Origin: Acidobacteriota bacterium
GTDB lineage: Bacteria > Acidobacteriota > Vicinamibacteria > Vicinamibacterales > 2-12-FULL-66-21
NCBI GenBank assembly: GCA_046735335.1
Contig: JBKPTE010000060.1
Span: forward strand, 1,125-65,124
Direction: 5' to 3'
DNA length: 64,000 nt
Shown piece by piece: positions 17,135 through 61,516 of this stretch (position 1 is its first letter; each line of letters opens with the position of its first letter). A program made the translations under genes and the position numbers. The notes beneath the pieces are model-generated. The model had not been told where the DNA came from, did no database searches, and worked only from the letters and a program-made list of their open reading frames with translations.

Positions 17135-19435
17135 ATGGCCCGTCGTGGATACCTCGCGCGTGCACTAGAATGTCGCCACTTCAGTCCAGGCCGCACAGTG
17201 TCTCTGCCCGCAAACGACATCGCCGACTTCTTATGCGCCGCATCGGCATTCAGCGGCGTCGACGCAGCCCACGTGCGGGCGCTGACGGCGGATTTCAGGC
17301 TTTCGACGTTCTCTGACGGCGCGGTCGTCGTCGCCCAGGGCGATTCACATCGAACGCTGTACGTCGTCATTTCGGGGCAGCTCCGCGTCAGCTGGCAGAT
17401 GCCGGGCGGCGGGTCCCGAGTGCTGTTCTACGTCGATCCCGGCGAAACCGTCTGCGAAATGAGCCTCGTCTCCGACGACCCGGCAGCGGCAACCGTCGCC
17501 GCGGTCGGCGAAACTGTGCTCGTCTCGCTCCACCGGGACGACTTCGATCGGTTCTCGGCCACGTACCCCGATGCGGCGCTGCACCTGGTGCAGTCGCTGA
17601 GCCGGCGATTGCAGGCCCACCGGCTGTCCATCGCTCTGCATCTCGGGCATCTGTTCGATTCCGCGAATCCGGAGCTCCTCAGCGATCTGGAGTCCGAGCT
17701 CGAGATGTCCGCGTTGTACGGCGGAGAGATCCTCTTTCGGCAAGGCGAGCCGGGTGATTCGCTGTGCCTCGTCATCAACGGCCGCGTGCGCGTTTTCGTT
17801 CGCAACGATCAGGGAGAGGAGCGGGCGGTCGCGGAACTTGGCGCAGGCGAAGTCATCGGCGAAATAGCGGTCGTCACCGGCGAGAGACGGACGGCGACTG
17901 TCGTCGCGATCCGCGATACGCAGGTCGCAAGGCTCACGAAAGCTGCGTTCGATCGGCTCGTCCTTCGCCATCCGGCCTGGGCGGTCCGGACGGTCGGCCA
18001 GAAGCTGGCGCAACGGCTGATCGACGCCAACGCAGGGAGGAGTCAGCGATGCCAGGTGTCGACGATCGCCGTCGTGCCCATCGATCGCTCGGCGCCGGCA
18101 GGTGCGTTTTGCGAGCAGCTGCTGGCGCCCCTCTCCTCGTTCGGCCCCGCGGTGCACGTAACGAGCGCGGACGTCGATCGACATCTCGGCCGTCCAGGCA
18201 TCTCGCAGACGTTCGAGCGGGAGGGTGCCAACATCCGAGTCGTCGAGTGGCTTGCAAAGCAGGAGACCGAGCATCGGTATGTGATCTACCAGGCCGAACC
18301 GTTTCTGTGCCCATGGACGGAACGGTGCATTCGCCAGGCGGATCACGTCATTCTCCTCGGGGATGGCGCGAGCGACCCGGCCTTGGGAGAAGTCGAAACG
18401 GAGCTGCTGTCCGTGCGCCCCGAACGCTATGGCGCGCGCCAATGGCTCGTTCTCGCGCACGATCGCGCGGCGCCTTCGGGCACGCGACACTGGCTCGCGA
18501 ATCGCGACGTCGAGCGGTACTATCACGTCCGGCTCGGCGATCGGACGACGTTCGATCGGCTGGGACGGCTGCTCACAGGCCGGGCCGTCGGCTTGACGCT
18601 CGGAGGAGGATTCGCGCGCGGCCTCGCGCATCTCGGCGTCTTCCGGGCGTTCGAAGAGATGGGCATTCCGATCGACGCCATCGGATCGGCGAGCATGGGC
18701 GGCTTGCTTGGCGGTTTGAGGGCGATGGGGTGGGACCGCGATCGGATTCAGCGCGAGGTCTGCGCCGCCTGCGCCGACCACTTCGGCGACATGACGTTCC
18801 CCTTCGTCGCGTTCAAGCGCGGCGGCAAGTTCAGCCAGAACGTGCGGAACCTGTTCGGCGACGTGCAGATCGAGGACTTGTGGTTGCCCTACTTCTGCAT
18901 CTCGGCGAACCTGAACCGGTCGGAGCTGAAGCTGCACACGCAGGGTTCGCTTGCCAAGGCCGTCCTCGCCTCGACGCGCGCGCCGGGCGTCTTCCCGCCG
19001 ATCGTCTACGACGGCGAGCTGCACGTCGACGGCGGCGTCATCAACAACGTCCCGGTCGATCTCATGAAAGAGTTCTGCAACCAGGGCGTGACGATCGGCG
19101 TCGACGTCGCGCCGCCGCACGAGCTCAGGCCGGTCCGAGACTACGGCGACGCGATTTCCGGGTGGAAGACGTTCTGGAAGCGGTGCTTCTCAGCCGAGCG
19201 CGTGTACACGCCCAGCATCCTCCTCGTCCTGATTCGCACCCTCGAATACACGGGGATTTCGAACCAGCACACCAGGCTGCAGTCCGCGGACGTCTTCATG
19301 CGTCCGGACATGCTTCCTTTCAAGCGCACCGACTTTCATCTCGCTGCGAGCATCGTCGAAGCCGGGTACGAGTGCGCGAAGGCGAATCTGCTGAAGCATC
19401 GCGAGAAAGTCACGAGCGCAATTACGGCTCTCTGA
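17135..19435 (+). CDS. cyclic-nucleotide-binding (x2) patatin-like phospholipase (NTE-like)
   Basis: Two cNMP-binding domains (GDSHRTLYVVISGQLRV...GETVCEMSL and GDSLCLVINGRVRV...GEVIGEIAVVTGERRTATV). Patatin domain with the oxyanion motif GGGFARG, a serine motif GSASMGG and the catalytic DGG (HVDGGVINNVP). Confidence 0.85.
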   Translation: MARRGYLARALECRHFSPGRTVSLPANDIADFLCAASAFSGVDAAHVRALTADFRLSTFSDGAVVVAQGDSHRTLYVVISGQLRVSWQMPGGGSRVLFYVDPGETVCEMSLVSDDPAAATVAAVGETVLVSLHRDDFDRFSATYPDAALHLVQSLSRRLQAHRLSIALHLGHLFDSANPELLSDLESELEMSALYGGEILFRQGEPGDSLCLVINGRVRVFVRNDQGEERAVAELGAGEVIGEIAVVTGERRTATVVAIRDTQVARLTKAAFDRLVLRHPAWAVRTVGQKLAQRLIDANAGRSQRCQVSTIAVVPIDRSAPAGAFCEQLLAPLSSFGPAVHVTSADVDRHLGRPGISQTFEREGANIRVVEWLAKQETEHRYVIYQAEPFLCPWTERCIRQADHVILLGDGASDPALGEVETELLSVRPERYGARQWLVLAHDRAAPSGTRHWLANRDVERYYHVRLGDRTTFDRLGRLLTGRAVGLTLGGGFARGLAHLGVFRAFEEMGIPIDAIGSASMGGLLGGLRAMGWDRDRIQREVCAACADHFGDMTFPFVAFKRGGKFSQNVRNLFGDVQIEDLWLPYFCISANLNRSELKLHTQGSLAKAVLASTRAPGVFPPIVYDGELHVDGGVINNVPVDLMKEFCNQGVTIGVDVAPPHELRPVRDYGDAISGWKTFWKRCFSAERVYTPSILLVLIRTLEYTGISNQHTRLQSADVFMRPDMLPFKRTDFHLAASIVEAGYECAKANLLKHREKVTSAITAL

Positions 19436-20924
19436 CACGAGCGTCCGAAAGACGGCAGGCTTCGCTGGCGCGACGGCTTCCGAGACCGCGAACGATAAGT
19501 CTGGCGAACCGGCCGTACGGCGGCGCGGTCAGGCGCAGCACGTTCACGAAGCGCACATGGTGCACGCTTCGAGCGTGCGAAAACCGCTGGAAGCCCGTCC
19601 GGCCGTGATAGGCACCCATCCCGCTGCTGCCCACGCCGCCGAACGGGAGATCCTCCTGAACCTGGTGGAGAAGCAAACCGTTGATCGTTGCGCCTCCAGA
19701 CGTGGTGCGGCCGAGCACGCCGTCGCAGGAGGCACGATCGTGCGTGAGGCAGTACAGCGCGAGCGGCTTGTCCCTTCCATTGACGAACGCCACGGCCTCG
19801 TCCAGCGTCTCGTAAGGAACGATCGGCAGGACGGGCCCGAAGATTTCGTCGCGCATCAGCGCGCACGTCATCGGCGGACGCAGTACCACCGTCAGTCTCA
19901 TCGCTCGCGCAGTGGCCGTGCCCCCCTCGTGTGCGAGAATCTGTGCTCCGCCGGCGCGAGCTTCGTCGATTGCCGTCCTCAGGCGCTCGTACTGCGGTTC
20001 GGTGAAGATCGACGTGTAATCAGGATTGCTGCCGGCGCCGGGATAGAGCCGCCGCGCCTCGGCGATGATGGCCTGCCCCAGCGCCTCCACTTTCGGGGCT
20101 GGAGCGAGCACGTAGTCCGGCGCCAGGCACGTCTGACCGGCATTCGCCAGCTTCGGGAAGGTGATATCCCGCGCCGCGACGGCGACGTCGTAGTCGGGGC
20201 ACACCACGACCGGTGACTTGCCTCCCAGCTCCAGGGTAACGGGTGTGAGATTCTCGGCTGCAGCCGCGAGCACCTTTCGTCCGACGGCAGCGGACCCGGT
20301 GAACAGGATGTGATCGAGCGGCAGCCGAACGAACTGCTCTGCGAGGTCCACCCCGCCGACGAGAACGGCGAGCTCGCTCTCGTCGAACGCCCGCGCCAGC
20401 AGACTCTTGAGCAGCTTGGAGAACGCGGGCATCTGATCGGACGTCTTCAGGAGCACGCGGTTGCCCGCGGCCATCGCATCCACCACCGGAACGAGCGCGA
20501 GCGACAGCGGATAGTTCCACGGCGACACGATCCCGACGATGCCGAGCGGTTGGTACTGGATCCAGGAGCGGCTCGGTTTGAAGGTCCACGCGACCCGCCG
20601 GCGTTCGGGGCGCATCCAGCGTCGCAGGTTCTGCTTCGCGTGCCGGATCGCGTTCTGCAGCGGTACGAGCTCGAGGAGGGACGTCTCGTAAATCGAGCGG
20701 TGACCGAAATCCGCCGAGATCGCATCGGCGAGCGCCGGACTGTTTTCTCCAACAGCCTCGGCCAGCCGATCGAGCGAACCGAGGCGAGCGCGGAGATCCG
20801 GCGGCGCAGAGGCGGCACACGCGCGGCGCTGCAGGTCGTAGACGCGGCGCATTTCGGCGATGGCGTCGCCTGCTCCCGGAACGGCGTCGGTCTGGGCGGC
20901 CGTCGTGCTCATTTCCGTCTCCAA
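19422..20924 (-). CDS. class-3 aldehyde dehydrogenase (fatty/coniferyl aldehyde dehydrogenase-like)
   Basis: PLGIVGIVSPWNYP, FTGSAAVGRKV, LELGGKSP and NAGQTCLAPDYVL closely parallel the remembered ALDH3 family motifs, including the catalytic Cys. The 3' end overlaps the convergent patatin gene by 14 nt. Confidence 0.9.
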   Translation of the reverse strand: METEMSTTAAQTDAVPGAGDAIAEMRRVYDLQRRACAASAPPDLRARLGSLDRLAEAVGENSPALADAISADFGHRSIYETSLLELVPLQNAIRHAKQNLRRWMRPERRRVAWTFKPSRSWIQYQPLGIVGIVSPWNYPLSLALVPVVDAMAAGNRVLLKTSDQMPAFSKLLKSLLARAFDESELAVLVGGVDLAEQFVRLPLDHILFTGSAAVGRKVLAAAAENLTPVTLELGGKSPVVVCPDYDVAVAARDITFPKLANAGQTCLAPDYVLAPAPKVEALGQAIIAEARRLYPGAGSNPDYTSIFTEPQYERLRTAIDEARAGGAQILAHEGGTATARAMRLTVVLRPPMTCALMRDEIFGPVLPIVPYETLDEAVAFVNGRDKPLALYCLTHDRASCDGVLGRTTSGGATINGLLLHQVQEDLPFGGVGSSGMGAYHGRTGFQRFSHARSVHHVRFVNVLRLTAPPYGRFARLIVRGLGSRRASEACRLSDARVREP

Positions 20925-20941: not shown

Positions 20942-22318
20942 TCAGCCGACAACCGCTTCCTGCGCAGAGAACAGCTCACGAAAGTACGCGTTCAGCATGC
21001 GCCCGTCCGGGTCGTACGTCCGCTGGGTCTGCGCCATCAGGTCGAGACGATCGCCGTATGCCTTGCGGACGATCTCGCGGGTGATCCCGAACGTCTGGTT
21101 GAGCAGCGGCGCGCCGCGGCGGGCGCTGCAGAACCGGTTGTACTCGTCAAGATACTCCCACCAGCCTGGGGCGCCCGTCGAAACCGGATCGAGGGTCATG
21201 ACGTCTCCTGCGTGGGAGTACGACAGCAACGCGCGGCGGTCCTGGCGGATGGCGTATCCGACGGACGACAGGTTCGAGCGGTATCCCGTGCGGCGGTAGT
21301 AGTCGCGGCAGAACTGGAAATAGTCCGCGATGATTTTGGGATACTCCTGCACCGGGAACGCAAACAGGCTGAACGTGTAGCGGCTGCGCCCCCCGTGCGG
21401 AGGGTAGCGGATGATTTGATCGACCGGGATCGTGTGACGGCCCCTCACCCGATGCACCAGATTGAACCGCCAGAACGCACCAAGGGCGTTGATCACGTGG
21501 TAGCGCACCGACCGTAGCGGTACGCGCGTTTCCACGGCATTGGCCAGCATCGGTCCGATCACGCTCCAGCCGCGGTTTCGAACCGCCCACGGACGGTCTC
21601 GTGGCGTGCCGGGGGCGCCCGGATTGTACCTGCGGAATTCGACGGTAATCCTGTCGGCGAACGGAAAGATGTAGCAGAAGATCGACCATCCGCTGCGTCT
21701 CAGCCCAGGAAGCTCGCGGACGAACTCCTCGGACGTGAACGTCTTGTGAAAGACCTCGATGGGCGTCAGCGGACGCACTTTGAACGTCGCCGCGTACACG
21801 ACGCCGAACGTCCCGTAGCTGCAGCGGATCTTCTCCATGAGTGCGGGATCGTTCTCGTCGCTGGCCTCCATCACGCGCCCGTCGGGCAGCACCATCTTGA
21901 CGCCGGTCACGTAGGAGCCCACCTGCCCGTACTCGCCCGGCATCGACGAGTCCTTCGTCCCGGCACAGGCGGCGCTGCCCACCGACAGATTGCCGATTTC
22001 CGTGCAGACGTGGAATTGCAGCCGCCGCGCGCGCAGCGCATTCGCGACGTCGATGTACAACGCGCCCGCTTCCGCCGTGACCGAATCGTCCGCGATCTCG
22101 AGGATGCGGTTCATCCCTTCCATCTTGATGAGGGTGCCGCCGTCGGCGGCGCCGCACATCGCCGTGGAATGATTCGACCCAATCGCCCGTACGGGAGACG
22201 GGAACCGGACTGGATCGGTGAGGACCCGCCGGATGTCCTCGACCGAGCGCGCCTCCACGATTACCCTAGGATGGGACACGAGATCACCGAACCAGTTGGC
22301 CACGACGAGCTCGGACAT
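20942..22318 (-). CDS. FAD-binding oxidase, PCMH-type FAD domain with ALO-like C-terminus
   Basis: N-terminal FAD_binding_4-like region (VRAIGSNHSTAMCGAADGGTLIKM). C-terminus ...TQRTYDPDGRMLNAYFRELF resembles the D-arabinono-1,4-lactone oxidase / VAO family tail. Confidence 0.75.
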   Translation of the reverse strand: MSELVVANWFGDLVSHPRVIVEARSVEDIRRVLTDPVRFPSPVRAIGSNHSTAMCGAADGGTLIKMEGMNRILEIADDSVTAEAGALYIDVANALRARRLQFHVCTEIGNLSVGSAACAGTKDSSMPGEYGQVGSYVTGVKMVLPDGRVMEASDENDPALMEKIRCSYGTFGVVYAATFKVRPLTPIEVFHKTFTSEEFVRELPGLRRSGWSIFCYIFPFADRITVEFRRYNPGAPGTPRDRPWAVRNRGWSVIGPMLANAVETRVPLRSVRYHVINALGAFWRFNLVHRVRGRHTIPVDQIIRYPPHGGRSRYTFSLFAFPVQEYPKIIADYFQFCRDYYRRTGYRSNLSSVGYAIRQDRRALLSYSHAGDVMTLDPVSTGAPGWWEYLDEYNRFCSARRGAPLLNQTFGITREIVRKAYGDRLDLMAQTQRTYDPDGRMLNAYFRELFSAQEAVVG

Positions 22319-22431
22319 GCCGAGACCTCCGCTGAGGGTCGACGACTGACGCCTCGCGCTCTCCGCAGATATGGGGATACTATTCCGAGCGACGTGCGCC
22401 GCTAGGTCGGCTCCCGCAAGCGAGGGCGATC

Positions 22432-24828
22432 ATGTCACATGCAGATCCGGCCCAAACCAGCCACCCGCTCCTGAGTGGAACCTGCCTGCCTGATGCGGTC
22501 TCGACGCTGAAAGCGCTCGAGCAGGCGTTCGAGCTCGATCCGACCGATCGAACCGGCGAGATCAGCGCCCTTCTTGGAACGATCTATTTCGTCCAGGAGC
22601 GATACGGCGACGCGGTCCGCCACCTCGAGGCCGCCGTCATGAAGCGGCCCGACGATACGAGCCTCGCCGACGTCTTCGCGCGCGCCGTCCGGAACTGCGA
22701 CACGCGGATAGACAAACCCATGTCGGTGATCGAGTTCACCGACGCCGTCAAGATGATGACGCCGCCGGCGCTGTACCTACGCGAGCCCGAGATCAAGGCG
22801 CCGCTGCCCCGTGCGGCTCACGGATCCTGGAAGACCGGCTCTGTCGTCGTCGGACTCCAGACGATGGGCGGCGCGGCAGCCGGCATGCTGCTGAGCGGCC
22901 TGCTGACGATCGCCGAGCGCGCTGGATTGAACGACGCCAGGCGGCCGGCCTGGGTCCGGCGATCGCGGATCCTCGGTCAGCTCACGCTGGCCGCGTACCG
23001 CGAGTGGCTGGACGGACATGTCATCCAGGATCCGTACCGGCGAGGCGAGCTGACGGCAAACCAGCCGCCGGGCCAGCGGCGTCCGGCGTGGACGCGATCG
23101 ATGCCCACCGCAAACGGCGCGTGGCGTACTGACGACCCGATGGAAGGCGCCGCGCTTGCCCGCTACGCGCAGCAGGGTGCACAGCCCATCGAGCGTTTCC
23201 AGAGCCGTCTGAACGATCCGCGGCTGCCAAGCCCGCGCGAAGTCGCACGCGCCTTCCTTCATCTGCGGCCCGGGACCCGACAGACGCTGGCACCGTTCCT
23301 CAACAAGCTGTACATCGCGTGGATTCAGTTCGAGAGCCACGACTGGTTCAGTCATGGCGAGAACGTCGGGGGAGGCGGGATGTACAAGATCCCGCTCGCA
23401 GCCGACGATCCGATCCGGCTGAAATACGGACTCGAGACACTCGAGATCAAAAGGACGCAGCCCGATCCGCATCCGAGCCAGGGACGCCTCACGTATCCGA
23501 ACGAGGTCACGCACTGGTGGGACGCCTCGCAGGTGTACGGCAGCAACCAGGAGACGGAGGATCGCCTGCGCACCGGAGCGGACGGCAGATTGCTGCCGGG
23601 CGGCAAGCTCCATCTCCCGCACGACCTGCTGCCCATCAACCCGGTGACCGGCGTCGAAGACACGGGATTCACGCGGAACTGGTGGCTGGGGCTCTCGATG
23701 TTCCACACGTTGTTTGCCCGCCACCACAATCGGATCTGCGACGAGCTGGCCCGCGCGTACCCGGACCATCCGTGGACCAGCGATCAGATCTTCAAGACGG
23801 CGCGTCTCATCAACGCGGCGGTCATGGCCAAGATCCACACGGTCGAGTGGACACCCGCCGTGCTGCCGAACAAGAAAGTGGCGCCCGGCCTCTGCGTCAA
23901 CTGGTGGGGGCTGACGGAAACACGGCTGCGCCCGTTCCGGAAGCGGCGCATTCATCGCGTGCTGAAACTCCGCCACCCGATTCTCGGCGGCCTCGTGGGC
24001 GGCCGCCGGGACAATCACGGCGTGCGGCACCAGTTCTCCGAGGAGTTCGTGTCCGCATACCGTCTGCACGAGGGGATGACCGAGACGATCGACATCCGCT
24101 ACGCAGGTGAGCCCTCCGTGCGCACATCCATCAGGACGGATGCCTCACGCGGCCACGCGGCTCACGCGATCGTGCAGGCGCACGGTCTCGGCAACCTGTT
24201 CAACTCGTTTGGATTCGAGAAGGGCGGCGCGCTCGTCAACAACAACCTGCCCGCCTGGATGACGGACATGAGCATCGACGGCCAGGCGGTCATCGATATC
24301 GGGACGATCGACATCCTTCGCGATCGCGAGCGGGGAATGCCGGGGTACAACGACCTGCGCGCGCTCCAGGGATTGCCGCGGCTCGCGACCTACGACGACC
24401 TGACGGCGGATCCGTCGACAAAGGCGAATCTCGAGCGCCTCTATGGCCCTGCGCCGGGCGGTCTGGACCTCATGGACCTCCAGGTCGGCATGTTGTGCGA
24501 CCAGAAGCGGCCCGACGGATTCGGCTTCGACGATCTGCGCTTCGCGTTCTTCATCAAGGCGGCGTCGAGCCGGCTCGAGCAGGATCCGATGTTCTGCGAG
24601 AACATGAACGCGGGCGTCTACACCGAGTGGGGCCTCGAGCACATCGAGACGATGGATCTCCGCGAAGTGCTGCTCCTCGAATGCCCCGAACTGCGCGCCT
24701 CGCCCCTCGCGCGCACGGATGCGCGCGGCCGGTACACGCTCGGCAACCCCTTCGAACCATGGGGCACGACCGCAGCGACGCATCCCGACGAGCACCCGCT
24801 CAGCGCCGGGCGCATCGAGCGCTATTAG
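22432..24828 (+). CDS. haem dioxygenase of the animal-peroxidase superfamily, plant alpha-dioxygenase (alpha-DOX)-like, with extra N-terminal region
   Basis: 798 aa. WIQFESHDW (distal His303) compares with plant WIQFMIHDW. EEFVSAYRLH (Tyr543/His546) compares with plant DFTSVYRMH, which carries the catalytic Tyr and proximal His. Other matches: THWWDASQVYGSN, TLFARHHNRICDEL, AKIHTVEWT, ILRDRERGMPGYN, and SRLEQD (Arg714, equivalent to the carboxylate-binding Arg). All comparisons are against Arabidopsis DOX1 recalled from memory. Confidence 0.85.
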   Translation: MSHADPAQTSHPLLSGTCLPDAVSTLKALEQAFELDPTDRTGEISALLGTIYFVQERYGDAVRHLEAAVMKRPDDTSLADVFARAVRNCDTRIDKPMSVIEFTDAVKMMTPPALYLREPEIKAPLPRAAHGSWKTGSVVVGLQTMGGAAAGMLLSGLLTIAERAGLNDARRPAWVRRSRILGQLTLAAYREWLDGHVIQDPYRRGELTANQPPGQRRPAWTRSMPTANGAWRTDDPMEGAALARYAQQGAQPIERFQSRLNDPRLPSPREVARAFLHLRPGTRQTLAPFLNKLYIAWIQFESHDWFSHGENVGGGGMYKIPLAADDPIRLKYGLETLEIKRTQPDPHPSQGRLTYPNEVTHWWDASQVYGSNQETEDRLRTGADGRLLPGGKLHLPHDLLPINPVTGVEDTGFTRNWWLGLSMFHTLFARHHNRICDELARAYPDHPWTSDQIFKTARLINAAVMAKIHTVEWTPAVLPNKKVAPGLCVNWWGLTETRLRPFRKRRIHRVLKLRHPILGGLVGGRRDNHGVRHQFSEEFVSAYRLHEGMTETIDIRYAGEPSVRTSIRTDASRGHAAHAIVQAHGLGNLFNSFGFEKGGALVNNNLPAWMTDMSIDGQAVIDIGTIDILRDRERGMPGYNDLRALQGLPRLATYDDLTADPSTKANLERLYGPAPGGLDLMDLQVGMLCDQKRPDGFGFDDLRFAFFIKAASSRLEQDPMFCENMNAGVYTEWGLEHIETMDLREVLLLECPELRASPLARTDARGRYTLGNPFEPWGTTAATHPDEHPLSAGRIERY

Positions 24829-24847
24829 CGCGAACGGATCGAGCGCC

Positions 24848-25672
24848 ATGGTCGAAGCTCCAGCCGTCGTTGCAGGGACGCCGATACGGCTCTTTCATGC
24901 CGGCCTGAATCGGTATTTCATCGTCGATGGCGCGTCCGTCTACGGGGACGCGCGCGGCGATGGTCGCATTCGGAATGGTGACAGATACGCCGGACCCGAG
25001 GTAAGCGCACTCGTCGAAGCGGCGCGATTTTTCGCGACGTACTACGACGCGCCCTTTCCCGGTGCGAGGAGTCTGAACCCGCAGATCAGCAGCGGCGGAC
25101 GCCTGAACGGCAAGGAAGCGCGGCGCTTCGCTCAGGGCGCGGACGGCGTCGTCGCGAAGCGGACGGACCTCCTCGCGCATCTCGACTTCTTCGATCGGCG
25201 AAGCGGCGATGGCACGATCGCGCTCGGAGAGAACTTTCAGGGCTGGCGCGATCTGGGGTTCGGACTCCTCCGATCGCTGCTGCTCACGTTGGGCTCGGCG
25301 CTCGTGTTTGGACGAGCAGTCGACGGATTCGCGATCGACGTCGACCGGATCGCGGAGAAGCGCCCGAAGGGAAGCAGCGGGATCTACGGGCCGGAAGGCA
25401 ACGTGGACCGGGCGCGTCTTGCCGCCTTTGCGGCGGCGTTCGACGGCACCGCGAACGACATGCTCACGCACGGCGAGCTCCGAGCGGCTCTTGCGCAGCG
25501 TGCCAGGCTCGGAAGGATTCCCCGGCGCCAGTTCGAATCGCTGCTCGCGCTCACCGAACGGATCAACGGATCACCAATCGTGACGAGGGATCAGTTTCTG
25601 GGGCTGTTCGACAACTCCCTGTTCTGGATGGTGGCGTCGCTGCCCGACCGATCCGGACGGCGGCGCCTCTAA
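24848..25672 (+). CDS. caleosin (peroxygenase)-family protein
   Basis: 274 aa. [32 protein letters not shown] compares with plant [50 protein letters not shown] compares with IHKSKHGSDSKTYDNEGRF. C-terminal LFDNSLFW compares with CFDGSLFE. Starts 19 nt after the alpha-DOX-like stop. Confidence 0.75.
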   Translation: [274 protein letters not shown]

Positions 25673-25686
25673 CCAAGCGCTCTGGT

Positions 25687-26352
25687 TCAGAAGAACTTCT
25701 TCCGCGACCCCGCACCGATCAATCCGGTGCCCATGAGCAACAGCGTCGCAGGCTCCGGCACGAGCCCTATTTCAGCGATCATGCTGGCCGAACCGCTGCC
25801 CGTGATCCTGATGGGTTGCGAGTGCACGGTGTAGAGGAGTCGGTACTCGAGGCCCGGCGGGAGCGGTCCGGTCGGCATGGAGAAGCTGGGGCTGCTGCTC
25901 GGTGTCGGAGACAGGCGAAGAATCGTTCCCCCTCCCACCGTCTGCCACGTCTTGTGTCTGCTGCCATCGGCCGGAGAGGTCTGGTCGATGAACAGATCGA
26001 AAAGAAGAATGGGCGCGAAAGGGCTCGGCCGGCTCGGAAACACGAAGCCTGGGGAGAACGTCGACGCGAAGCTGCCCAGGCTCGCGGGGGTGGCGCTGTT
26101 GCTGACCTCCACGTCCTGACTCACGCCGGTGAACGTGACCGTGGCGCTGTTGCCGCCGGATCCAAAGGTGATGGTGTCCGTACCCGTGCCGGAACATGCC
26201 GTGACGCGGCACGTGAACACGCCGTGCGTGGAAAAGATGGCGTCGACCACCAGACTGCCATCCGGCAACACCGTAAATGGATCGGCTAGTGCGCCCGCGG
26301 GGAACAGGAGCAAGGCTGCGGCGAGGCAGGCACCCGAAATCATTCTTCGCAT
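25687..26352 (-). CDS. PEP-CTERM sorting-domain secreted protein
   Basis: Signal peptide MRRMISGACLAAALLLFPAGALA. C-terminal VPEPATLLLMGTGLIGAGSRKKFF is a PEP-CTERM motif with TM helix and basic tail. The longer 370-aa track ORF has an implausible N-terminus. Confidence 0.85.
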   Translation of the reverse strand: MRRMISGACLAAALLLFPAGALADPFTVLPDGSLVVDAIFSTHGVFTCRVTACSGTGTDTITFGSGGNSATVTFTGVSQDVEVSNSATPASLGSFASTFSPGFVFPSRPSPFAPILLFDLFIDQTSPADGSRHKTWQTVGGGTILRLSPTPSSSPSFSMPTGPLPPGLEYRLLYTVHSQPIRITGSGSASMIAEIGLVPEPATLLLMGTGLIGAGSRKKFF

Positions 26353-26461
26353 TACGGCCTCCACATGGGTGTCGCTCCGACTCGACCGTACTAATGCCGG
26401 CACGGCAGGCTGCAGGTTGCGTTCCAGAGGAAACGCGTGGATCCCGTCCGCGCTCGGAACG

Positions 26462-26989
26462 ATGGACGTGAAGCTCATTCCCAACGATCCCCTCGGCCGC
26501 GCCTTCACGGCAGGGATGTTCGACGGGTTCGAATACCTCGTGGATACGCTCAACGGTACGGCGCAGGCCGTTTTCGACTGCGACACGATCCAGCCGCACG
26601 TCGAGGTCCCCGTGCGCGGAGGGATGACGCAGCTCATGGCGATGCCGCGCTCGGGAGATCGGCTGATCTTCGCGTTGTTCCAGGCAGGGCAGGTGGGCAT
26701 GCTCGACGTGAGCGATCCCGAACATCCGGTGCAGTCCGGCATCGTCAACCTCGGCGCCGGCGCCGGGCCGCACATGATCTCGCTCACCGACGACGACAAG
26801 CGGTTGGTCGTGAGCGACTATTTCCTCAACGAGGACGACTTCGGGAAAGTGCACCTGGAAGGCGACCATCACGTGCGCCTGATCAAGGTCTTCAAGCACC
26901 GGCTCGCTCTCGATCCACGGTTTGACGTGGACTTCAATACGGCATTCGCAACAGGACCGGCGCGGCCGCACGGCGTCGCGATGAAGTGA
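26462..26989 (+). CDS. selenium-binding protein (SBP56 / methanethiol oxidase) family, C-terminal fragment only; possibly a pseudogene
   Basis: 175 aa. GPHMISLTDDDKRLVVSDYFLN...LALDPRFDVDFNTAFATGPARPHGVAM parallels the remembered human SELENBP1 C-terminus [22 protein letters not shown]...[26 protein letters not shown]. From memory, family members are much longer than this ORF. Confidence 0.55.
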   Translation: MDVKLIPNDPLGRAFTAGMFDGFEYLVDTLNGTAQAVFDCDTIQPHVEVPVRGGMTQLMAMPRSGDRLIFALFQAGQVGMLDVSDPEHPVQSGIVNLGAGAGPHMISLTDDDKRLVVSDYFLNEDDFGKVHLEGDHHVRLIKVFKHRLALDPRFDVDFNTAFATGPARPHGVAMK

Positions 26990-37115: not shown

Positions 37116-38411
37116 ATGGCAGTTTCTGCAACAATAGCGGCATTGATCGGCGCAGATCCCCATCCGCCCCTCGCGAGCGTCCCCGGTGCCACCGGACGCT
37201 GGTGGCTCGTTGCGCTCCTCACCAGCGGGATGACCTTCTGCTACGCGCAACGCGGCACGCTGTCCGTCGCGGCACCGTTCATGATGCGCGAGCTCGGCAT
37301 CAACACCGAGACGATGGGGCTCATGCTGTCGGCGTTCTCCTGGTTCTATTGCTTCATGCAGGTGCCGTCCGGCTGGGTCGTGGACCGTTTCGGCGTGGGT
37401 CGCGCGTACGCAGCGGGCTTCGGGCTGTGGTCGATTGCGTGTGCATTGACGGGCGCGTTTCGAAGCATCGTGGCCATCGTGTTCTTCCGAGTCACGATGG
37501 GCGTGGGCCAATCCGTCGCGTTTCCGGCGAGCGCCCGGACCGTCGCGACCTGGTTTCCGGACAATGAGCGCGGCCTCGTCAACTCGAGCTACTTGATCGG
37601 CGTCCGCTTCGGACAGGCGTTGATCAATGCCGTGGGCGTCGGGCTGATTGCGGCCTACGGCTGGCGCATGTTCTTTCTCGTCAGCGGGCTTGCACCGATG
37701 TTGTGGATCCTCCCATGGACGATCGTGCTGCGCCGTTGGGAATCTCCTGATTCGCCGGCGGCTTCTTCGCCATCCTCCGACCGGTTTACGTTTGCATCGA
37801 CGTTCGGCCTGCTGCGGCATCCAACCGTGCTGGGAACGGCACTCGGGTTCTTCGCATTCGATTACGTCTGGTTCGTCTTCGTGTACTGGCTGCCCGGTTA
37901 TCTCCGGCTCGAACGGCACTTCACGCCCGCGCAGATGGCGTTTCACGCATCGGTCCCGTTCCTCGTCATGTCGGTCGTGATCGTGCTCTCGGGGATCGCC
38001 AGCGATCGCCTGATTGCATCGGGCTTTCGAGAAGTGCGCGTGCGTAAGGCCTTCATCGCGACAGGCTTCGGAATCGCGCTGGCGATCGTGCCGGCCGGAC
38101 TGGTCCATGACAACGCCACGTCGTTGTGGTTGCTGTCGACCTCGCTATGCGGCCTCGGACTGGCGGTACCGAATACGTGGAGCCTCACGCAGGCGTGCTG
38201 CACGAAACGCGTGGTGGGCACGGTGTCGGGCATTCAGAACTTCGGCGGCAACGTCGGCGGTATCATCGCGCCGTGGCTGACCGGCGCGATCGCGTACCGG
38301 ACGGGCTCGTTCGCTGCAGCGTTCGTTCTCTGCGGCTTCCTCCTTGTCGGGGGCGCGCTCGCCTATTGGCTGCTCATGAACGACATCGTCGACTCTCCTG
38401 AGAACGCGTGA
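37116..38411 (+). CDS. MFS transporter (anion:cation symporter-like)
   Basis: 12-TM hydrophobic pattern. VPSGWVVDRFGVGRAY (MFS loop 2-3 motif). ATG at 37116. The upstream part of the track ORF is antisense to recQ. Confidence 0.85.
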   Translation: MAVSATIAALIGADPHPPLASVPGATGRWWLVALLTSGMTFCYAQRGTLSVAAPFMMRELGINTETMGLMLSAFSWFYCFMQVPSGWVVDRFGVGRAYAAGFGLWSIACALTGAFRSIVAIVFFRVTMGVGQSVAFPASARTVATWFPDNERGLVNSSYLIGVRFGQALINAVGVGLIAAYGWRMFFLVSGLAPMLWILPWTIVLRRWESPDSPAASSPSSDRFTFASTFGLLRHPTVLGTALGFFAFDYVWFVFVYWLPGYLRLERHFTPAQMAFHASVPFLVMSVVIVLSGIASDRLIASGFREVRVRKAFIATGFGIALAIVPAGLVHDNATSLWLLSTSLCGLGLAVPNTWSLTQACCTKRVVGTVSGIQNFGGNVGGIIAPWLTGAIAYRTGSFAAAFVLCGFLLVGGALAYWLLMNDIVDSPENA

Positions 38412-39667
38412 TGTTTCCCTCGCGCCTGTTGCTCGTGCGTCAACACTTCCCGGATCGCCGCCTCGCGGACGTTCGAGCGGAGGCACGGCGCCAGCTCGAA
38501 GGCAGCGGCTTTGTGTCTCGCCTCCAACCCGGCGCTCGTGTGGCGATTGGGATTGGCAGCCGCGGCATTGCCAACATCGACGCGATCGCCGGCGCCGCCG
38601 TTCAGTACTGGCGCGATCACGGGATGGCGCCCTTCATCTTTCCCGCGATGGGAAGCCACGGCGCCGCGACACCGGAAGGACAGGCAGAAGTGCTCGCGCG
38701 TTTCGGCATCACGAGCGAATCGGTCGGGTGCCCTGTCATCAGCCAGCCGGAGGTCGTCTCGCTCGGAAGGACCGACGATGGGATCGAGGTCTTCATGGAT
38801 GCCGCCGCGCACGCGTCGGACGGGGTGATGATCATCGCGCGCGTGAAGTGGCACACGAGCTTCGAGGGACGGCTGGAAAGCGGCCTCATGAAGATGATGG
38901 CCATCGGCATCGGGAAGTTCGCCGGCGCGCAGCGGTATCACACGCATGCTCGGACGCTCGGGCTCGAGCACGTCATCCGCACGGCGGGACGGCGGGTGCT
39001 GCAGACCCAGAAGATGATTGGCGGCCTGGCCATCGTCGAGGACGCGCAGCACAACACGGCGAAGCTCGACGCGGTCCCTCACGAGTGCATGGAACACCGG
39101 GATGAAGAGAACCTCGCGCTCGCGAAATCCTGGATGCCAGCGCTGCCCTGCGATCTCGACGTGCTCGTCGTCGATCGGATCGGCAAGAACATCAGCGGCA
39201 CGGGCATGGACGCCAAGGTCGTCAACCGCGGGCCCATCGGGGAATACAACCCGTGGACCGGCGTCCCATCCGTCGAGCGGCTGTTCGTTCGCGCGCTCGA
39301 TCCGCTGACGCACGGCAACGCGCTCGGGATCGGGATGGCGGACGTCACGACGGATCGGCTCGTCGAGGCGATCGATTGGGACGCGACGCGGATAAACGCG
39401 CTCAGCTCCCGGACGCCGTCACGGGTTCGCGTGCCCGCGCACTTCCCCGCCGATCGCGAGTGTCTGGCGTGGATAGGGCCCACCGCCGGCAGGATCAATC
39501 CGGCCGACGTAACTTACGGCTGGATCCGAAACACCCTGGAGCTCGAACACGTCGCCGTCAGCGGCAACCTGCGCACCGAGATCGAGAGGAAGCCGCAGCT
39601 CCAGATCGAACGCGAAATCGATGTGCTGTGGGACGGCCACGGCAACCTCGTGAGCCCGTTCGAATGA
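38408..39667 (+). CDS. LarA-N-like (DUF2088-type) domain protein, function unknown
   Basis: 419 aa. The layout GARVAIGIGSRGIANI...FPAMGSHGAATPEGQ...IIARVKWHTSFEGRLESGLMKM loosely parallels the remembered lactate racemase N-domain segments. Overlaps the MFS stop by 4 nt. The family call is tentative. Confidence 0.45.
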   Translation: MMFPSRLLLVRQHFPDRRLADVRAEARRQLEGSGFVSRLQPGARVAIGIGSRGIANIDAIAGAAVQYWRDHGMAPFIFPAMGSHGAATPEGQAEVLARFGITSESVGCPVISQPEVVSLGRTDDGIEVFMDAAAHASDGVMIIARVKWHTSFEGRLESGLMKMMAIGIGKFAGAQRYHTHARTLGLEHVIRTAGRRVLQTQKMIGGLAIVEDAQHNTAKLDAVPHECMEHRDEENLALAKSWMPALPCDLDVLVVDRIGKNISGTGMDAKVVNRGPIGEYNPWTGVPSVERLFVRALDPLTHGNALGIGMADVTTDRLVEAIDWDATRINALSSRTPSRVRVPAHFPADRECLAWIGPTAGRINPADVTYGWIRNTLELEHVAVSGNLRTEIERKPQLQIEREIDVLWDGHGNLVSPFE

Positions 39668-47061: not shown

Positions 47062-48456
47062 ATGGCCGTTCAGGACCTCGTCGACCGGCTGGCGGCTCAC
47101 AAGACCATTGGCCAGGCTCCACGGGAGGAGCTGGAATGGCTGGCCGCACACGGATCCGTCCGGAAGCTGGACGTCGGCGAGGTGCTGACCCCGAAGGGAA
47201 AGCCCGTCGAGGGATTGTTCATCGTCCTGTCCGGGCGCATCAGCATCTCGATCGATCGCGGAACAGGCCCGCACACGATCATGGAATGGCGGCAGGGGGA
47301 CGTCACGGGCCTGCTGCCGTACTCGCGTCTCGTCAGCCCGCCCGCCGATACGCTCGCGGAGGAACCGACGGAGGTCGTCGTCATTTCACGCCGCGATCTT
47401 TCCGCGATGATCCGCGAGTGTCACACCGTCACGTCCGTACTCGTCCACACCATGGTCGACCGCACCCGTGCGTTCACGTCGGCCGACCTGCACGACGAGA
47501 AGATGCTCTCGCTCGGCAAGTTGTCTGCGGGCCTGGCGCACGAGCTGAACAATCCCGCTTCGGCGATCGAGCGGAGCGCGGCGCTTCTCGAACGGCGCGT
47601 CGACGACAGCGAAGCGGCGGCGCGGGCGCTCGGCGCCGTATGTCTGACCGAGAGCCAGCTTGCGGCGATCCACGCCGTTCGCGCGTCATGTCACACCATC
47701 CGCGAACGCGGCATTCTGTCGCCTCTGGCCCAGGCGGAACGCGAGGAGGGCATCGCCGCCTGGCTGGACGAGCACGCCGTCGATCCGTCGATCGCGGACG
47801 CGCTGTCGGAGACGGCCGTGACACTCGACGCGCTCGAGAGTCTCGTGTCCGAGCTCGATCCGCCCACGCTCGCACTCGCGCTCCGATCGCTTGCGGCCGC
47901 ATGCTCCGTTCGCCGGCTCGCATCCGAGATTCAGGAGGCGGCCACGCGCGTCTCCGTTCTCGTCGGGGCCATCAAGGGCTTCACGCACATGGATCAAGCC
48001 ACTGTGGCGGAGCCCGTCGATGTGGTGCGTGGGATTGACGACACGGTGACGGTGCTGCGATCGAAGGCGCGCGACAAATCCGTGACGGTGAACGTCGACG
48101 TCGAATCGGATCTGCCGAACGTCCTTGCCTTTGCCGGCGAGCTCAATCAGATATGGGCCAACCTGATCGACAACGCGCTCGATGCGATTCCCGACGCGGG
48201 CCGCGTCGATATTCGCGCAACCCGCGATCGCAAGCGCGTCGTGGTGCGGATCGCCGACAACGGGCCGGGCATCCCCGATGAGATTCGTGAACGCATTTTC
48301 GACCCGTTCTTCACGACCAAGCCGGTTGGCCGCGGAATGGGTCTCGGGCTCGACATCGTCCGGCGGCTGGTCGGGCACAACGACGGAGAGATCACCGTCG
48401 AGTCGCGGCCCGGGCGGACGGAGTTCAGCGTCGCGCTGCCCGCCGTTCAGAAGTAG
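47062..48456 (+). CDS. cyclic-nucleotide-binding-domain sensor histidine kinase
   Basis: N-terminal cNMP-binding fold (GKPVEGLFIVLSGRISI...). H-box LSAGLAHELNNPASAI. N, G1 and G2 boxes (NLIDNALDA, DNGPGI, GRGMGLGLDIV). No TM segment, so cytoplasmic. Confidence 0.88.
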   Translation: MAVQDLVDRLAAHKTIGQAPREELEWLAAHGSVRKLDVGEVLTPKGKPVEGLFIVLSGRISISIDRGTGPHTIMEWRQGDVTGLLPYSRLVSPPADTLAEEPTEVVVISRRDLSAMIRECHTVTSVLVHTMVDRTRAFTSADLHDEKMLSLGKLSAGLAHELNNPASAIERSAALLERRVDDSEAAARALGAVCLTESQLAAIHAVRASCHTIRERGILSPLAQAEREEGIAAWLDEHAVDPSIADALSETAVTLDALESLVSELDPPTLALALRSLAAACSVRRLASEIQEAATRVSVLVGAIKGFTHMDQATVAEPVDVVRGIDDTVTVLRSKARDKSVTVNVDVESDLPNVLAFAGELNQIWANLIDNALDAIPDAGRVDIRATRDRKRVVVRIADNGPGIPDEIRERIFDPFFTTKPVGRGMGLGLDIVRRLVGHNDGEITVESRPGRTEFSVALPAVQK

Positions 48457-48471
48457 AGGGCAGGCGAGATC

Positions 48472-55887: not shown

Positions 55888-56013
55888 GCGGAAGAAGCTG
55901 ATCAGATGCGTCGTTCGGTCGAGAATCGAGCCCTCCGCGCGGTAACGCAGGAGGTCGCCGCCATCGCCTGATTGCACGTCCGCGTCGTGATCCGGACCGA
56001 CGTCGCGTCAGGA

Positions 56014-60062: not shown

Positions 60063-61516
60063 TCTTCACGCGCCGGCAGTTTCTGCGCCAGGCGTCGGCC
60101 CTCCCCATCGGTGCGCTTGCGAGGCCAACGCTCGCGATCGCCGCCCCAAAACCCACCGACATCCGTGTCGACGAAGTTCTTCACGGCTACGAAGACTTCG
60201 TCTACCGCGCGCCGTACAAGTTCGGCGGCCGCGTCGTCGATCGCGTCACGCTGCTGAACGTCCGCTGCCGCGTCACCACCCGGAAGGGGCAGACCGCCTG
60301 GGGCTTCGGGTCGATGACGATGGGGAACGTGTGGGCGTTTCCGTCGGCGACGATGTCGTACGACACGACGCTCGAGGCGATGAAGGCACTGGCCGCGCGT
60401 GTCGCGCGGCTGACGGGTAGCTGCCGTGAAATCGGACACCCGCTCGACATCGCGCAGGTTCTCGAGCCCGAGTGCCTGAAGGCCGCTGCGGACGTTTCAG
60501 CGGAGCGCAAGCTGACCAAGCCCATCCCCAAGCTCTGCACGCTCGTTGTCGTCAGCGCGTTCGACGCGGCGCTGCACGATGCGTTCGGAAAGGTGCACCG
60601 CCGGAACGTCTACGACACGTTCGGGCCGGATCTGATGACGCACGACGTGTCACGGTATCTCGGTCCCGAGTTCCGAGGCGTGCGGCTGGATAGAGTCCTC
60701 CTGCCGAAGCGGCGCGAGCGCATCCCGGTGTTTCACAGCGTCGGCGGCCTCGATCCGCTCGAGACGAAAGACATCGAGCATCCCGTCGGTGACGGCTTGC
60801 CCGAAACGCTGGCGGACTGGATGCGGCGCGACGGCATCGTACGGATCAAGATCAAGCTGCAGGGCGATGCCCTCGCATCGGACGTCGAGCGGACGCTGGC
60901 GATTGACCGGATCGCGTCTGCCGTGCAGGCGCACCGGCCGGCCGACGACCTCGCGTACAGCCTCGATTTCAACGAGCGCTGCCCCAACGTTCAGTACGTG
61001 CTCGAGTTCCTGAACCGGATTGGTGCAGCGTCACCCGAAGGGTTCAAGCGGATTCTCTACGTCGAGCAGCCGACGGCGCGCGATCTGAAAGCGAACAGGC
61101 AGAACGTGATGCACGAAGCCGCGAAGTTGCGGCCCGTCGTCATCGACGAGTCGCTGACCGATCTCGAAAGCCTCCTGCTCGCGCGGGACATGGGCTACAC
61201 GGGCGTGGCGCTCAAGGCGTGCAAGGGCCAGAGCCAGACGGTGCTGATGGCCGCGGCCGCGCAGAAGTACAAGATGTTCGTCTGCGTGCAGGATCTCACG
61301 TGTCCGGGCGCATCGCTGATCCAGTCGGTCGGGATCTCGGCTCGCGTGCCCGCGGTTGCCGGCATCGAAGCAAACGCGCGGGAGTACGTTCCGGCAGCCA
61401 ATGCGCGATGGCAGGACCGCTTTCCCGGCATTTTCACGATCAGCGACGGATACATGCGCACCGCGGACATCGGCGGCCCGGGTCTCGGCATCCCTGACGA
61501 CATGGTGCCCAGATGA
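60059..61516 (+). CDS. enolase-superfamily (mandelate racemase / muconate lactonizing enzyme-like) protein with Tat-type signal
   Basis: GTG start overlapping the upstream stop (ATGTGA). N-terminus [30 protein letters not shown]. Barrel motifs in order: RIKIKL (KxK), LDFNERC (metal Asp), YVEQP (Glu), VIDES (Asp/Glu), LKACKG (Lys). Confidence 0.75.

Follow-up and report, generated by a model that had tools for sequence, protein, structure and literature searches.

A conserved pairing of an alpha-dioxygenase gene with a gene for a caleosin-like protein in Acidobacteriota and Myxococcota

A stretch of 64,000 nucleotides (nt) from an Acidobacteriota bacterium (contig JBKPTE010000060.1 of assembly GCA_046735335.1), hereafter the window, carries two consecutive genes on its forward strand, the first (ORF1) encoding a homologue of the fatty-acid alpha-dioxygenases (alpha-DOX) of plants and the second (ORF2) a homologue of the caleosins. 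The two protein families were known beforehand, and so was the fact that they cooperate in a plant; what is new is a bacterial version encoded as an operon or as a fusion, with a partner from a distinct subfamily that retains a single haem histidine and with a linked lipase and dehydrogenase. The bacterial pairing parallels a lipid-defence pathway of two enzymes that had been known from plants alone, and it supplies the first genomic evidence, from operons and fusions alike, that alpha-dioxygenases and caleosin-type proteins are dedicated partners, a relationship for which there was previously one co-localisation study in Arabidopsis. An initial annotation of the window had read the two genes as a self-contained module in which one enzyme generates fatty-acid hydroperoxides and the other consumes them, and that interpretation is borne out as far as sequence analysis can take it.

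The dioxygenase and caleosin-like genes

The product of ORF1 matches the Pfam An_peroxidase family (PF03098) with 268.4 bits against a cut-off of 25 (E 1.5e-79, amino acids (aa) 245-753), and the closest structures in the Protein Data Bank (PDB) are those of alpha-DOX from rice (4kvj; E 6e-70, 239 bits) and then from Arabidopsis (4hhr; E 5e-63, 217 bits), matches to other branches being far weaker (lactoperoxidase, 1.8e-25 and 92 bits; cyclooxygenase, ~1e-9 and ~40 bits). Aligned by BLASTP with the rice alpha-DOX segment, ORF1 shows 32% identity across 508 columns (E 1e-76). The catalytic tyrosine and two haem histidines are treated as essential in the alpha-DOX literature (PMC9305512, PMC8720084). 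All motifs quoted in the initial annotation are present and align with catalytic residues of the rice enzyme (Table 1), and across 22 aligned dioxygenases, with identities down to 25%, no substitution is seen at H303, Y543, R544, H546 or R714. Directly before the distal His303 stands a Ser instead of an Asp; in animal peroxidases an Asp at this position forms an ester link to the haem, while Ser occurs there in dioxygenases. Rice His311 and Arg559, which correspond to His469 and Arg714 of ORF1, are residues that we take to bind the carboxylate near the haem. On these alignments, ORF1 is firmly established as a member of the alpha-dioxygenase family with conserved catalytic residues.

Ahead of the haem domain, ORF1 has an N-terminal extension of ~245 aa that is conserved in the dioxygenase family. 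Its matches to the tetratricopeptide repeat (TPR) models TPR_19, TPR_2 and TPR_14 all fall under their cut-offs, and relatives of the dioxygenase likewise have TPR matches; the Kyte-Doolittle profile peaks at 1.38 over aa 136-156. No signal peptide was found in ORF1, hence the protein is probably cytoplasmic and membrane-associated. No NCBIfam family is assigned to either ORF1 or ORF2, and the nearest named relatives of the two proteins come from metagenome-assembled genomes (MAGs) of Vicinamibacterales, with 79% identity for the dioxygenase and 68% for the caleosin-like protein.

ORF2 begins exactly as far downstream of the ORF1 stop codon as the initial annotation had placed it (Table 1). 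It scores 46.1 bits against the Pfam Caleosin model (PF05042; gathering score 27, E 6.6e-12) and covers model positions 2-169 of 170, so that both genes match the Pfam families to which they had been assigned, with no failure of ORF2 on the caleosin model. The AHLDFFD motif, singled out in that annotation as the context of a haem histidine, does align with the haem-histidine context of canonical caleosins. In this comparison the AtCLO1 sequence served as a guide only, and the first haem histidine (QQH-V-FFD context) is His70 of AtCLO1. The corresponding His111 of ORF2 is invariant both in an alignment of 28 subfamily members, reaching down to 27% identity, and in one that includes canonical caleosins, and an equivalent His is retained in all of the fusion proteins described below. 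E90, H111, F115, F154, R172 and Q228 are the invariant residues of the 28-sequence alignment. A C-terminal motif of caleosins resembling (F/Y)DGSLF is present as LFDNSLFW. Pfam EF-hand models gave no match to ORF2; canonical 12-residue EF loops are found in fused and Myxococcota relatives (DRDLDGRIGLFE, DSNGDGKISLRE), including proteins P0040, P0225 and P0239.

An AlphaFold2 (AF2) model of ORF2, built on a 24-sequence alignment, is confident, with a predicted local distance difference test (pLDDT) score of 82.6 and a predicted template modelling (pTM) score of 0.77. The N-terminal domain, which is conserved in both subfamily alignments, is modelled with pLDDT 84-96 over aa 11-100 and comprises strands at 13-17, 22-27 and 30-33 and a helix at 52-65. 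The hydrophobic helix at the position of the plant lipid-binding domain gives a Kyte-Doolittle peak of 1.79 at aa 136-155, and AF2 places a helix at 140-154. When a profile of the ORF2 subfamily was searched against 1.84 billion representative sequences, 233 proteins matched at E <= 0.001; the top matches (roughly 100-470 bits) span all 266 profile positions, including the N-terminal domain of ~100 aa, while the matches of canonical caleosins (80 bits or less) start only at about position 95. Judged by profile and alignment, ORF2 is a member of a distinct, DOX-linked caleosin subfamily with a single haem histidine.

Table 1. Positions of the two paired genes, their domains and residues, and the neighbouring genes in the window
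Feature	Position	Strand	Remarks
ORF1, alpha-DOX homologue	22432-24828	+	798 aa
ORF1 N-terminal extension, aa 1-244	22432..23163	+	weak TPR region and moderately hydrophobic stretch, aa 136-160
ORF1 haem dioxygenase domain, aa 245-753	23164..24690	+	An_peroxidase
His303 codon (CAC), distal haem His (WIQFESHDW)	23338..23340	+	aligned with rice His157; invariant in 22 sequences
His469 codon (KIHTVEW)	23836..23838	+	rice His311; at least 90% conserved among 22 sequences
Tyr543-Arg-Leu-His546 (AYRLH), radical-forming Tyr and proximal haem His	24058..24069	+	rice Tyr379/His382
Arg714 codon (SSRLEQD)	24571..24573	+	rice Arg559, carboxylate-binding; invariant
Spacer, ORF1 stop to ORF2 start	24829..24847	+	19 nt
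ORF2, caleosin-like gene	24848-25672	+	274 aa; open frame from 24719, ATG at 24848
ORF2 N-terminal domain, aa 1-103	24848..25156	+	beta-rich; confined to the DOX-linked subfamily; with a loop resembling DxDGDGRI (here DARGDGRI)
ORF2 caleosin-homologous domain	25157..25672	+	aa 104-262 match PF05042
His111 codon (AHLDFFD)	25178..25180	+	first haem His of plant caleosin, by alignment
EF-hand-like loop, D116-E128	25193..25231	+	one residue over the canonical 12
Single hydrophobic helix, aa 136-155	25253..25312	+	position of plant caleosin lipid-binding domain; lacks proline knot
ORF2 segment aa 166-178, in place of NIHxGKHGSD	25343..25381	+	no His; includes R172
Lipase: two cyclic nucleotide monophosphate (cNMP)-binding domains, NTE P-loop-like region, patatin phospholipase	17135..19435	+	766 aa
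Class-3 aldehyde dehydrogenase (ALDH)	19422..20924	-	500 aa; Pfam Aldedh 252 bits
Flavin adenine dinucleotide (FAD)-linked oxidase, vanillyl-alcohol-oxidase (VAO) family, accessory gene	20942..22318	-	458 aa; FAD_binding_4 67 bits, ALO 18 bits
Divergent intergenic region, FAD oxidase/ALDH unit versus DOX-caleosin unit	22319..22431	.	113 nt

Caleosin homologues are not confined to this subfamily among bacteria. Relatives of ORF2 carry PF05042 as well, and bacterial proteins already bear the database labels 'caleosin family protein' or 'peroxygenase', the former given by NCBI to two homologues and the latter by JGI to one apparently bacterial caleosin cluster. Canonical caleosins with two histidines occur in bacterial MAGs of Armatimonadota and of Vulcanimicrobiota/Eremiobacterota, some of them labelled 'caleosin family protein' by NCBI. 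One such gene, in a Vulcanimicrobiota/Eremiobacterota MAG (locus L024, 6001-6822; loci and proteins are cited here by L and P numbers), encodes a protein with an N-terminus resembling a signal or transmembrane segment and adjoins an esterase-like gene and not a dioxygenase. Linkage to a dioxygenase thus appears as a property of the single-His subfamily, and bacterial caleosins occur in at least two gene contexts.

Conservation of the pairing and gene fusions

Related loci were gathered in two ways, through the caleosin-like protein and through dioxygenase homologues at 39-51% identity. The caleosin-derived set comprises nine distinct loci with enough upstream DNA (L001, L002, L005, L006, L007, L009, L013, L016 and L017), and in all nine a dioxygenase gene, detected by tblastn, lies directly upstream of the caleosin gene on the same strand. 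Starting from the distant dioxygenases, which are mostly from Myxococcota, a caleosin-like partner was found at four of six loci. The partner gene lies 60 nt downstream of the dioxygenase in L010 (a Myxococcota MAG) and forms one in-frame dioxygenase::caleosin protein of 1096 aa in L011; in L021 (a Polyangiales MAG) the downstream gene encodes 297 aa with no Pfam match, which hhalign aligns with the subfamily profile at a probability of 99.9% (E 1e-37), and in L023 (a Myxococcaceae MAG) a short caleosin-like gene stands just upstream of the dioxygenase (hhalign 98%). Hence the pair is not unique to the genome in which the initial annotation had noticed it.

Fusion of the two proteins is recurrent, dioxygenase::caleosin polypeptides being present in at least nine cluster representatives. 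Six of these (P0206, P0209, P0225, P0239, P0243 and P0254) are 992-1096 aa long and all contain the motif HL(D/G)FFD; PF03098 and PF05042 are both recorded for P0206, P0225, P0239, P0243 and P0254, and the caleosin part of P0209 was read from its sequence. The other three (P0068, P0071 and P0073; 1131-1469 aa) join the dioxygenase to a more divergent C-terminal caleosin-like domain of which only the His is retained, the context in P0068 being HTLMFN (HTLMFNLLGR) with drifted EF-hand residues. Caleosin::patatin fusions were also found, with domains confirmed in P0038 and P0052 and a further member of the P0038 cluster, P0315 (1058 aa), on a 52-kb contig. These three proteins, of about 1030-1058 aa, have an N-terminal DOX-type caleosin domain, a long hydrophobic region of several helices and a C-terminal patatin domain.

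When species-representative genome contigs were searched with a profile of the caleosin alignment, only one locus was recovered, which suggests that the DOX-linked subfamily is rare there. Scanning metagenomes with a narrower caleosin alignment added eight loci, three of which (L018, L019 and L020) hold C-terminal gene fragments only. The contig of L019 starts inside the caleosin-like gene. The fragments at L018 1385-1849 and L020 2318-2428 are preceded by unrelated DNA (an ABC ATPase in L018), with no dioxygenase, and are probably gene remnants or assembly chimeras.

Fusion of two genes, like their synteny across phyla, is commonly taken as strong evidence that they are functionally linked. 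We consider it firmly shown that the dioxygenase and this caleosin subfamily are linked both physically and functionally and that the link has been conserved in evolution, and we regard functional coupling of the two proteins as highly probable. The pair would otherwise have come together by chance or recently, without any conserved function, for example in a block newly acquired from a plant or fungus, as might be imagined for two families that are best known from eukaryotes. To this we attach next to no credence, because the arrangement recurs in nine of nine caleosin loci, in four of six distant dioxygenase loci and as fusions, in two phyla (Acidobacteriota and Myxococcota). The G+C content across 22-26 kb (0.655-0.662) fits that of the whole window (0.63-0.70), and the best 120 of 4784 dioxygenase homologues at E <= 1e-10 are all metagenomic or bacterial MAG proteins; on native composition and the breadth of the bacterial dioxygenase family, a recent transfer from plant to bacterium was rejected.

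Gene neighbourhood and the proposed pathway

Upstream of the pair lies a gene for a patatin-type lipase with matches to the Pfam families cNMP_binding (143 bits, two stretches), NTE_Ploop (111 bits) and Patatin (103 bits). The patatin motifs are GGGFARG (aa 490), SASMG (aa 518, with Ser for the first Gly of GxSxG) and DGG (aa 632). Each of the nine caleosin-derived loci contains a patatin homologue, which lies downstream of the caleosin gene in L001 and L016 and upstream in the remainder and whose strand also varies; that the gene is kept despite its shifting position and orientation points to selection on linkage and not to inherited gene order. Another reading makes the cluster a Pycsar- or CBASS-type defence or suicide system that damages membranes on a cyclic-nucleotide signal, with the patatin as effector and the oxygenases as amplifiers of the damage to lipids, and the lipase does match PADLOC models of Pycsar effectors at 1e-28 to 5e-30. 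These matches span only the cNMP-binding domains (aa 177-312), and for that reason the PADLOC reading was rejected; no PADLOC model matches the dioxygenase, the caleosin, the ALDH or the FAD oxidase, no cyclase gene adjoins, and in Myxococcota the DOX-caleosin pair occurs without patatin. A defence role is accordingly very improbable.

Between the lipase and ORF1, on the opposite strand, are genes for an ALDH and an FAD-linked oxidase. The best PDB matches of the ALDH are a steroid aldehyde dehydrogenase (9nxl, 7e-96), human fatty aldehyde dehydrogenase (4qgk, 1e-84) and the rat class-3 enzyme (1ad3, 1e-82); it contains ELGGK (aa 232) and GQTCLA (aa 263), falls under every NCBIfam equivalog cut-off, and has orthologues beside the dioxygenase in L013 (94% identity) and L001 (65%). 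The oxidase has weak PDB matches to galactonolactone dehydrogenase and xylitol oxidase and, among the caleosin-derived loci, stands beside the dioxygenase only in the window and in its close relative L013. No sigma-70 consensus promoter was found in the 113-nt intergenic region, and promoter and terminator scans gave nothing usable.

The genes that follow ORF2 in the window, for a PEP-CTERM protein and for methionine biosynthesis, are unrelated. The former (25687-26331, reverse strand), directly after ORF2, encodes a small secreted protein whose N-terminus resembles a signal peptide and which bears a PEP-CTERM sorting motif, and is 97% conserved in L013; its gene overlaps the 5' end of a forward ORF (26129-26989) that matches, under threshold, the C-terminal third of the SBP56 selenium-binding/methanethiol-oxidase model and may be a gene fragment or have a miscalled start. 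At 47062-50133 (forward) lie a histidine kinase with an N-terminal cNMP-binding domain, a second cNMP-linked element in the window, and then a response-regulator receiver fused to a pyridine-nucleotide-disulphide oxidoreductase. A forward gene at 61513-63813 encodes the beta-propeller of a pyrroloquinoline quinone (PQQ)-dependent dehydrogenase with two N-terminal cytochrome c domains. Two further forward ORFs, 55972-58989 (1005 aa) and 38408-39667 (419 aa), show a coding-type G+C distribution over codon positions and have no Pfam match at E <= 1e-4.

Elsewhere, the patatin-DOX-caleosin block has other company. Two genes for RoxA-like di-haem cytochromes c adjoin it in L002 (498-5561), L005 (416-5533), L006 (523-3760) and L009 (539-5590), usually accompanied by genes for a fatty-acid desaturase, a short-chain dehydrogenase/reductase (SDR) and a P450, and these RoxA-like genes may, by analogy with Pseudomonas aeruginosa PA2077/PA2078, represent a second, periplasmic system for oxygenating fatty acids. 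Right after the caleosin gene stand genes for an HlyD-like adaptor, a MacB/FtsX permease and a GAF-domain ABC ATPase in L002 (10847-13356), L005 (10838-14401), L007 (5709-9400) and L009 (10794-13483), and this efflux pump suggests that in the related loci the product of the pathway is exported. None of these genes, whether for RoxA-like proteins, desaturase, SDR, P450 or the HlyD/MacB pump, is found in the window.

We propose that the window encodes a bacterial module for the alpha-oxygenation of fatty acids, made up of four functionally linked genes, and give this reading with its full chemical scheme a probability of about 0.55. Fatty acids would be released from membrane lipids by the cyclic-nucleotide-gated lipase. 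The TPR-bearing dioxygenase, using its haem and a radical on Tyr543, would then add O2 at C-2 to yield a 2(R)-hydroperoxy fatty acid; the residues for this step are present, and the chemistry is predicted from that of plant and cyanobacterial alpha-DOX. The caleosin-like partner, translated from the same transcript or, in some bacteria, fused to the dioxygenase, would receive the unstable hydroperoxide directly and, with haem held by His111, reduce it to a stable 2-hydroxy fatty acid, possibly oxygenating a second lipid, much as CLO3 of Arabidopsis acts on the product of alpha-DOX1. Hydroperoxide that escaped would decarboxylate spontaneously to the Cn-1 aldehyde, which the class-3 ALDH would oxidise to the Cn-1 acid, thereby completing one round of alpha-oxidation, and the 2-hydroxy and chain-shortened fatty acids so formed could serve in membrane remodelling, signalling or antagonism. 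We infer the binding of haem by ORF2 along with all of this chemistry. With the lipase and the ALDH included, the unit is larger than the self-contained pair of the initial annotation, although the pair itself is real.

Several observations count against this scheme, and most concern the partner. Caleosins of the CLO/PXG family are diagnosed by a conserved EF hand and by a domain that binds lipid and in many cases carries a proline-rich motif, and two invariant haem-coordinating histidines are required for their peroxygenase activity (PMC6309107). The second of these is absent, NIHxGKHGSD being replaced in ORF2 and in every DOX-linked relative aligned, and no other invariant His, Cys, Met or Tyr was seen in the 28-sequence alignment. 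The proline knot is missing from the ORF2 alignment, although the hydrophobic helix of 20 residues is retained; the EF loop in the window has an insertion of one residue, such that a 12-residue register puts Arg at position 1; and identity to canonical caleosins is low (19-27%). Structural comparison adds little, since Foldseek of the AF2 model against the PDB gave weak matches of the calmodulin EF-hand type (TM 0.2-0.35), uninformative on haem, and there is no caleosin structure for comparison, a PDB sequence search with ORF2 being empty even at E = 10. In the dioxygenase, rice Arg558 is replaced by Ser713, and C-2 regiospecificity is predicted from homology. The two distant loci without a caleosin gene also belong here: in L012 the dioxygenase (39% identity to ORF1) is partnered by a P450, and in L022 (an Eisenbacteria MAG) it is followed by an unrelated protein of 297 aa, which was rejected as a partner when comparison revealed no caleosin likeness. 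Finally, the links to patatin and ALDH are confined to a Vicinamibacterales-like clade.

Given the missing second histidine, peroxygenase chemistry in ORF2 is plausible rather than established; of the producer/consumer module proposed in the initial annotation, the adjacency, the pairing in two phyla and the in-frame fusions stand, and the consumer's chemistry is no more than plausible. The loss of that histidine makes the catalytic role of the caleosin-like partner the key question. The protein could instead be non-enzymatic, a docking or regulatory subunit that binds Ca2+ or lipid and either tethers the dioxygenase (and elsewhere the patatin) to membranes or lipid inclusions or gates it by Ca2+, in which case the product would be the Cn-1 aldehyde, passed on to the acid by ALDH in plain alpha-oxidation. 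An EF-hand-like fold with calmodulin-type matches, the hydrophobic helix, a well-folded and subfamily-specific N-terminal domain that might be a docking module, and the neighbouring class-3 ALDH are all compatible with such a role, and the fusion of the caleosin domain to either a dioxygenase or a membrane-embedded patatin would suit a targeting module. However, His111 is conserved without exception in the subfamily, in the fusions and in canonical caleosins, and remains so in sequences such as P0068 whose EF hand has drifted; a pure anchor for Ca2+ or lipid does not readily account for such strict conservation. In the plant protein, His70 alone is reportedly the axial ligand of a five-coordinate haem. 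We therefore hold the non-enzymatic role to be doubtful, if a serious alternative.

Unlikely, by comparison, is a dioxygenase that is not specific for C-2, producing a mid-chain hydroperoxide as do the cyanobacterial 10S-DOX or the fungal 8R- and 10R-DOX, with the caleosin-like partner as hydroperoxide isomerase, epoxy-alcohol synthase or diol synthase in the manner of the P450 half of a fungal fusion between dioxygenase and cytochrome P450 (DOX-CYP). At L012 (3802-10376) the start of the dioxygenase gene overlaps the end of the P450 gene by 4 nt, with genes for a RoxA-like cytochrome c and an Old-Yellow-Enzyme-type reductase upstream; this translationally coupled operon suggests that hydroperoxide-processing partners are interchangeable. 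The desaturase and paired RoxA-like genes of related loci would fit the same reading, and the companion logic of DOX-CYP is described (PMC13049297). Against it, the solved alpha-DOX structures are by far the best matches of ORF1 (239 bits versus 92 and 40), and the equivalents of rice His311 and Arg559 are conserved or invariant, which favours binding of the substrate with its carboxylate inward and attack at C-2.

The alpha-oxygenation module could also be set in a broader frame, although we regard this extension as speculative and rather improbable as a whole. The single-His caleosin subfamily and the TPR-bearing dioxygenase might constitute an ancient bacterial two-haem 'hydroperoxide relay', realised as a single polypeptide in the fusions and, in Vicinamibacterales-like Acidobacteriota, placed under a cyclic-nucleotide-gated phospholipase, so forming a prokaryotic counterpart of the series from phospholipase A2 (PLA2) through cyclooxygenase or alpha-DOX to a synthase. 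The same enzymes might lie behind alpha-oxidation and the iso-even and 2-hydroxy fatty acids of myxobacteria. To our knowledge, the enzyme of myxobacterial alpha-oxidation has not been identified. Myxobacteria convert iso-odd fatty acids by alpha-oxidation into iso-even ones (Bode et al. 2005, as cited in PMC3035250) and make 2-hydroxy acids (Ring et al. 2009, as cited in PMC10002949), and the DOX-caleosin pairs of Myxococcota are candidates for this activity.

Our results should be of interest to specialists in oxylipins, lipid droplets and haem enzymes. The presence of caleosin homologues, including the DOX-linked subfamily, in several bacterial phyla bears on the debated origin of the family, and it provides soluble or fused bacterial versions of proteins for which no structure is solved and whose haem site is contested, while a natural single-His variant is a direct test of which caleosin histidine matters. 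Candidate genes can now be named for bacterial alpha-oxidation and 2-hydroxy fatty-acid production, possibly under cyclic-nucleotide control. Biocatalysis employs alpha-DOXs as a route to fatty aldehydes, and its toolbox may be widened by a partner able to steer their product towards (R)-2-hydroxy acids.

Comparison with known systems

The initial annotation knew of no characterised bacterial caleosin and no operon of this kind, and a full-text literature search likewise turned up no account of a caleosin from bacteria, of an operon that joins it to a dioxygenase gene, or of their fusion. Caleosin also goes unmentioned in a 2026 review of the companions of dioxygenases (PMC13049297). Acidobacteria already appear in the alpha-DOX family tree of Kim et al. 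2021, who dropped sequences of more than 1000 aa, which would remove fusions, and make no mention of caleosin (PMC8720084).

Among haem dioxygenases, the plant and cyanobacterial alpha-DOXs (rice 4KVK, Arabidopsis 4HHR, CalDOX and LepDOX) share with ORF1 the haem domain, both histidines, the tyrosine and the arginine. CalDOX and LepDOX are active haem enzymes (PMC8720084), and the known fates of the alpha-DOX products are conversion to (R)-2-hydroxy acids or to Cn-1 aldehydes (PMC9305512). ORF1 differs from the rice enzyme in overall sequence and in its TPR-like extension, and within its clade it is always paired with a caleosin. Canonical CLO/PXG proteins (PF05042, EC 1.11.2.3), which are described from plants, fungi and algae, are homologous to ORF2 over the whole Pfam model and have in common with it the first haem His, the adjacent EF-hand position, the hydrophobic helix that follows and the C-terminal motif. 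They are distinguished from it by the second His and the proline-rich motif, whereas ORF2 has the EF-loop insertion and a further domain of ~100 aa at its N-terminus, is bacterial and is linked to a dioxygenase.

Two other systems couple the formation of a hydroperoxide to its transformation. In the fungal DOX-CYP fusions (linoleate diol synthases, Ppo; PMC13049297), a dioxygenase of the peroxidase-cyclooxygenase type is likewise attached to another haem protein, which acts on the hydroperoxide it forms, but that partner is a P450 and oxygenation occurs at C-8, C-9 or C-10; a bacterial operon of DOX and P450 is the one seen in L012. The oleate-diol synthase operon of Pseudomonas aeruginosa (PA2077/PA2078; PMC4496055) is also a bacterial pair of hydroperoxide-forming and hydroperoxide-transforming enzymes acting on free fatty acids, yet its enzymes are periplasmic and of the di-haem cytochrome c peroxidase type, unrelated to ORF1 and ORF2; RoxA-like di-haem genes are found at L002, L005, L006 and L009 and not in the window.

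The nearest parallel is the pair formed by alpha-DOX1 and CLO3 (RD20) on leaf lipid droplets of Arabidopsis. As summarised in PMC7509404 from Shimada et al. 2014, alpha-DOX1 makes the 2-hydroperoxy fatty acid 2-HPOT and CLO3 turns 2-HPOT into the 2-hydroxy acid 2-HOT, so that the biochemical logic of the bacterial pair has a precedent. According to the same summary, the plant system has the same two families acting in series on substrate from stored or membrane lipid. The bacterial partner, known from sequence alone, has neither the second His nor the proline knot of its plant counterpart and carries an additional domain ahead of the caleosin region, while the bacterial dioxygenase has its TPR N-terminus and is encoded alongside a cNMP-gated patatin and a class-3 ALDH. 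In Arabidopsis, on that account, the genes are unlinked and the two proteins meet on lipid droplets, whereas in bacteria they are encoded in one operon or as a single polypeptide.

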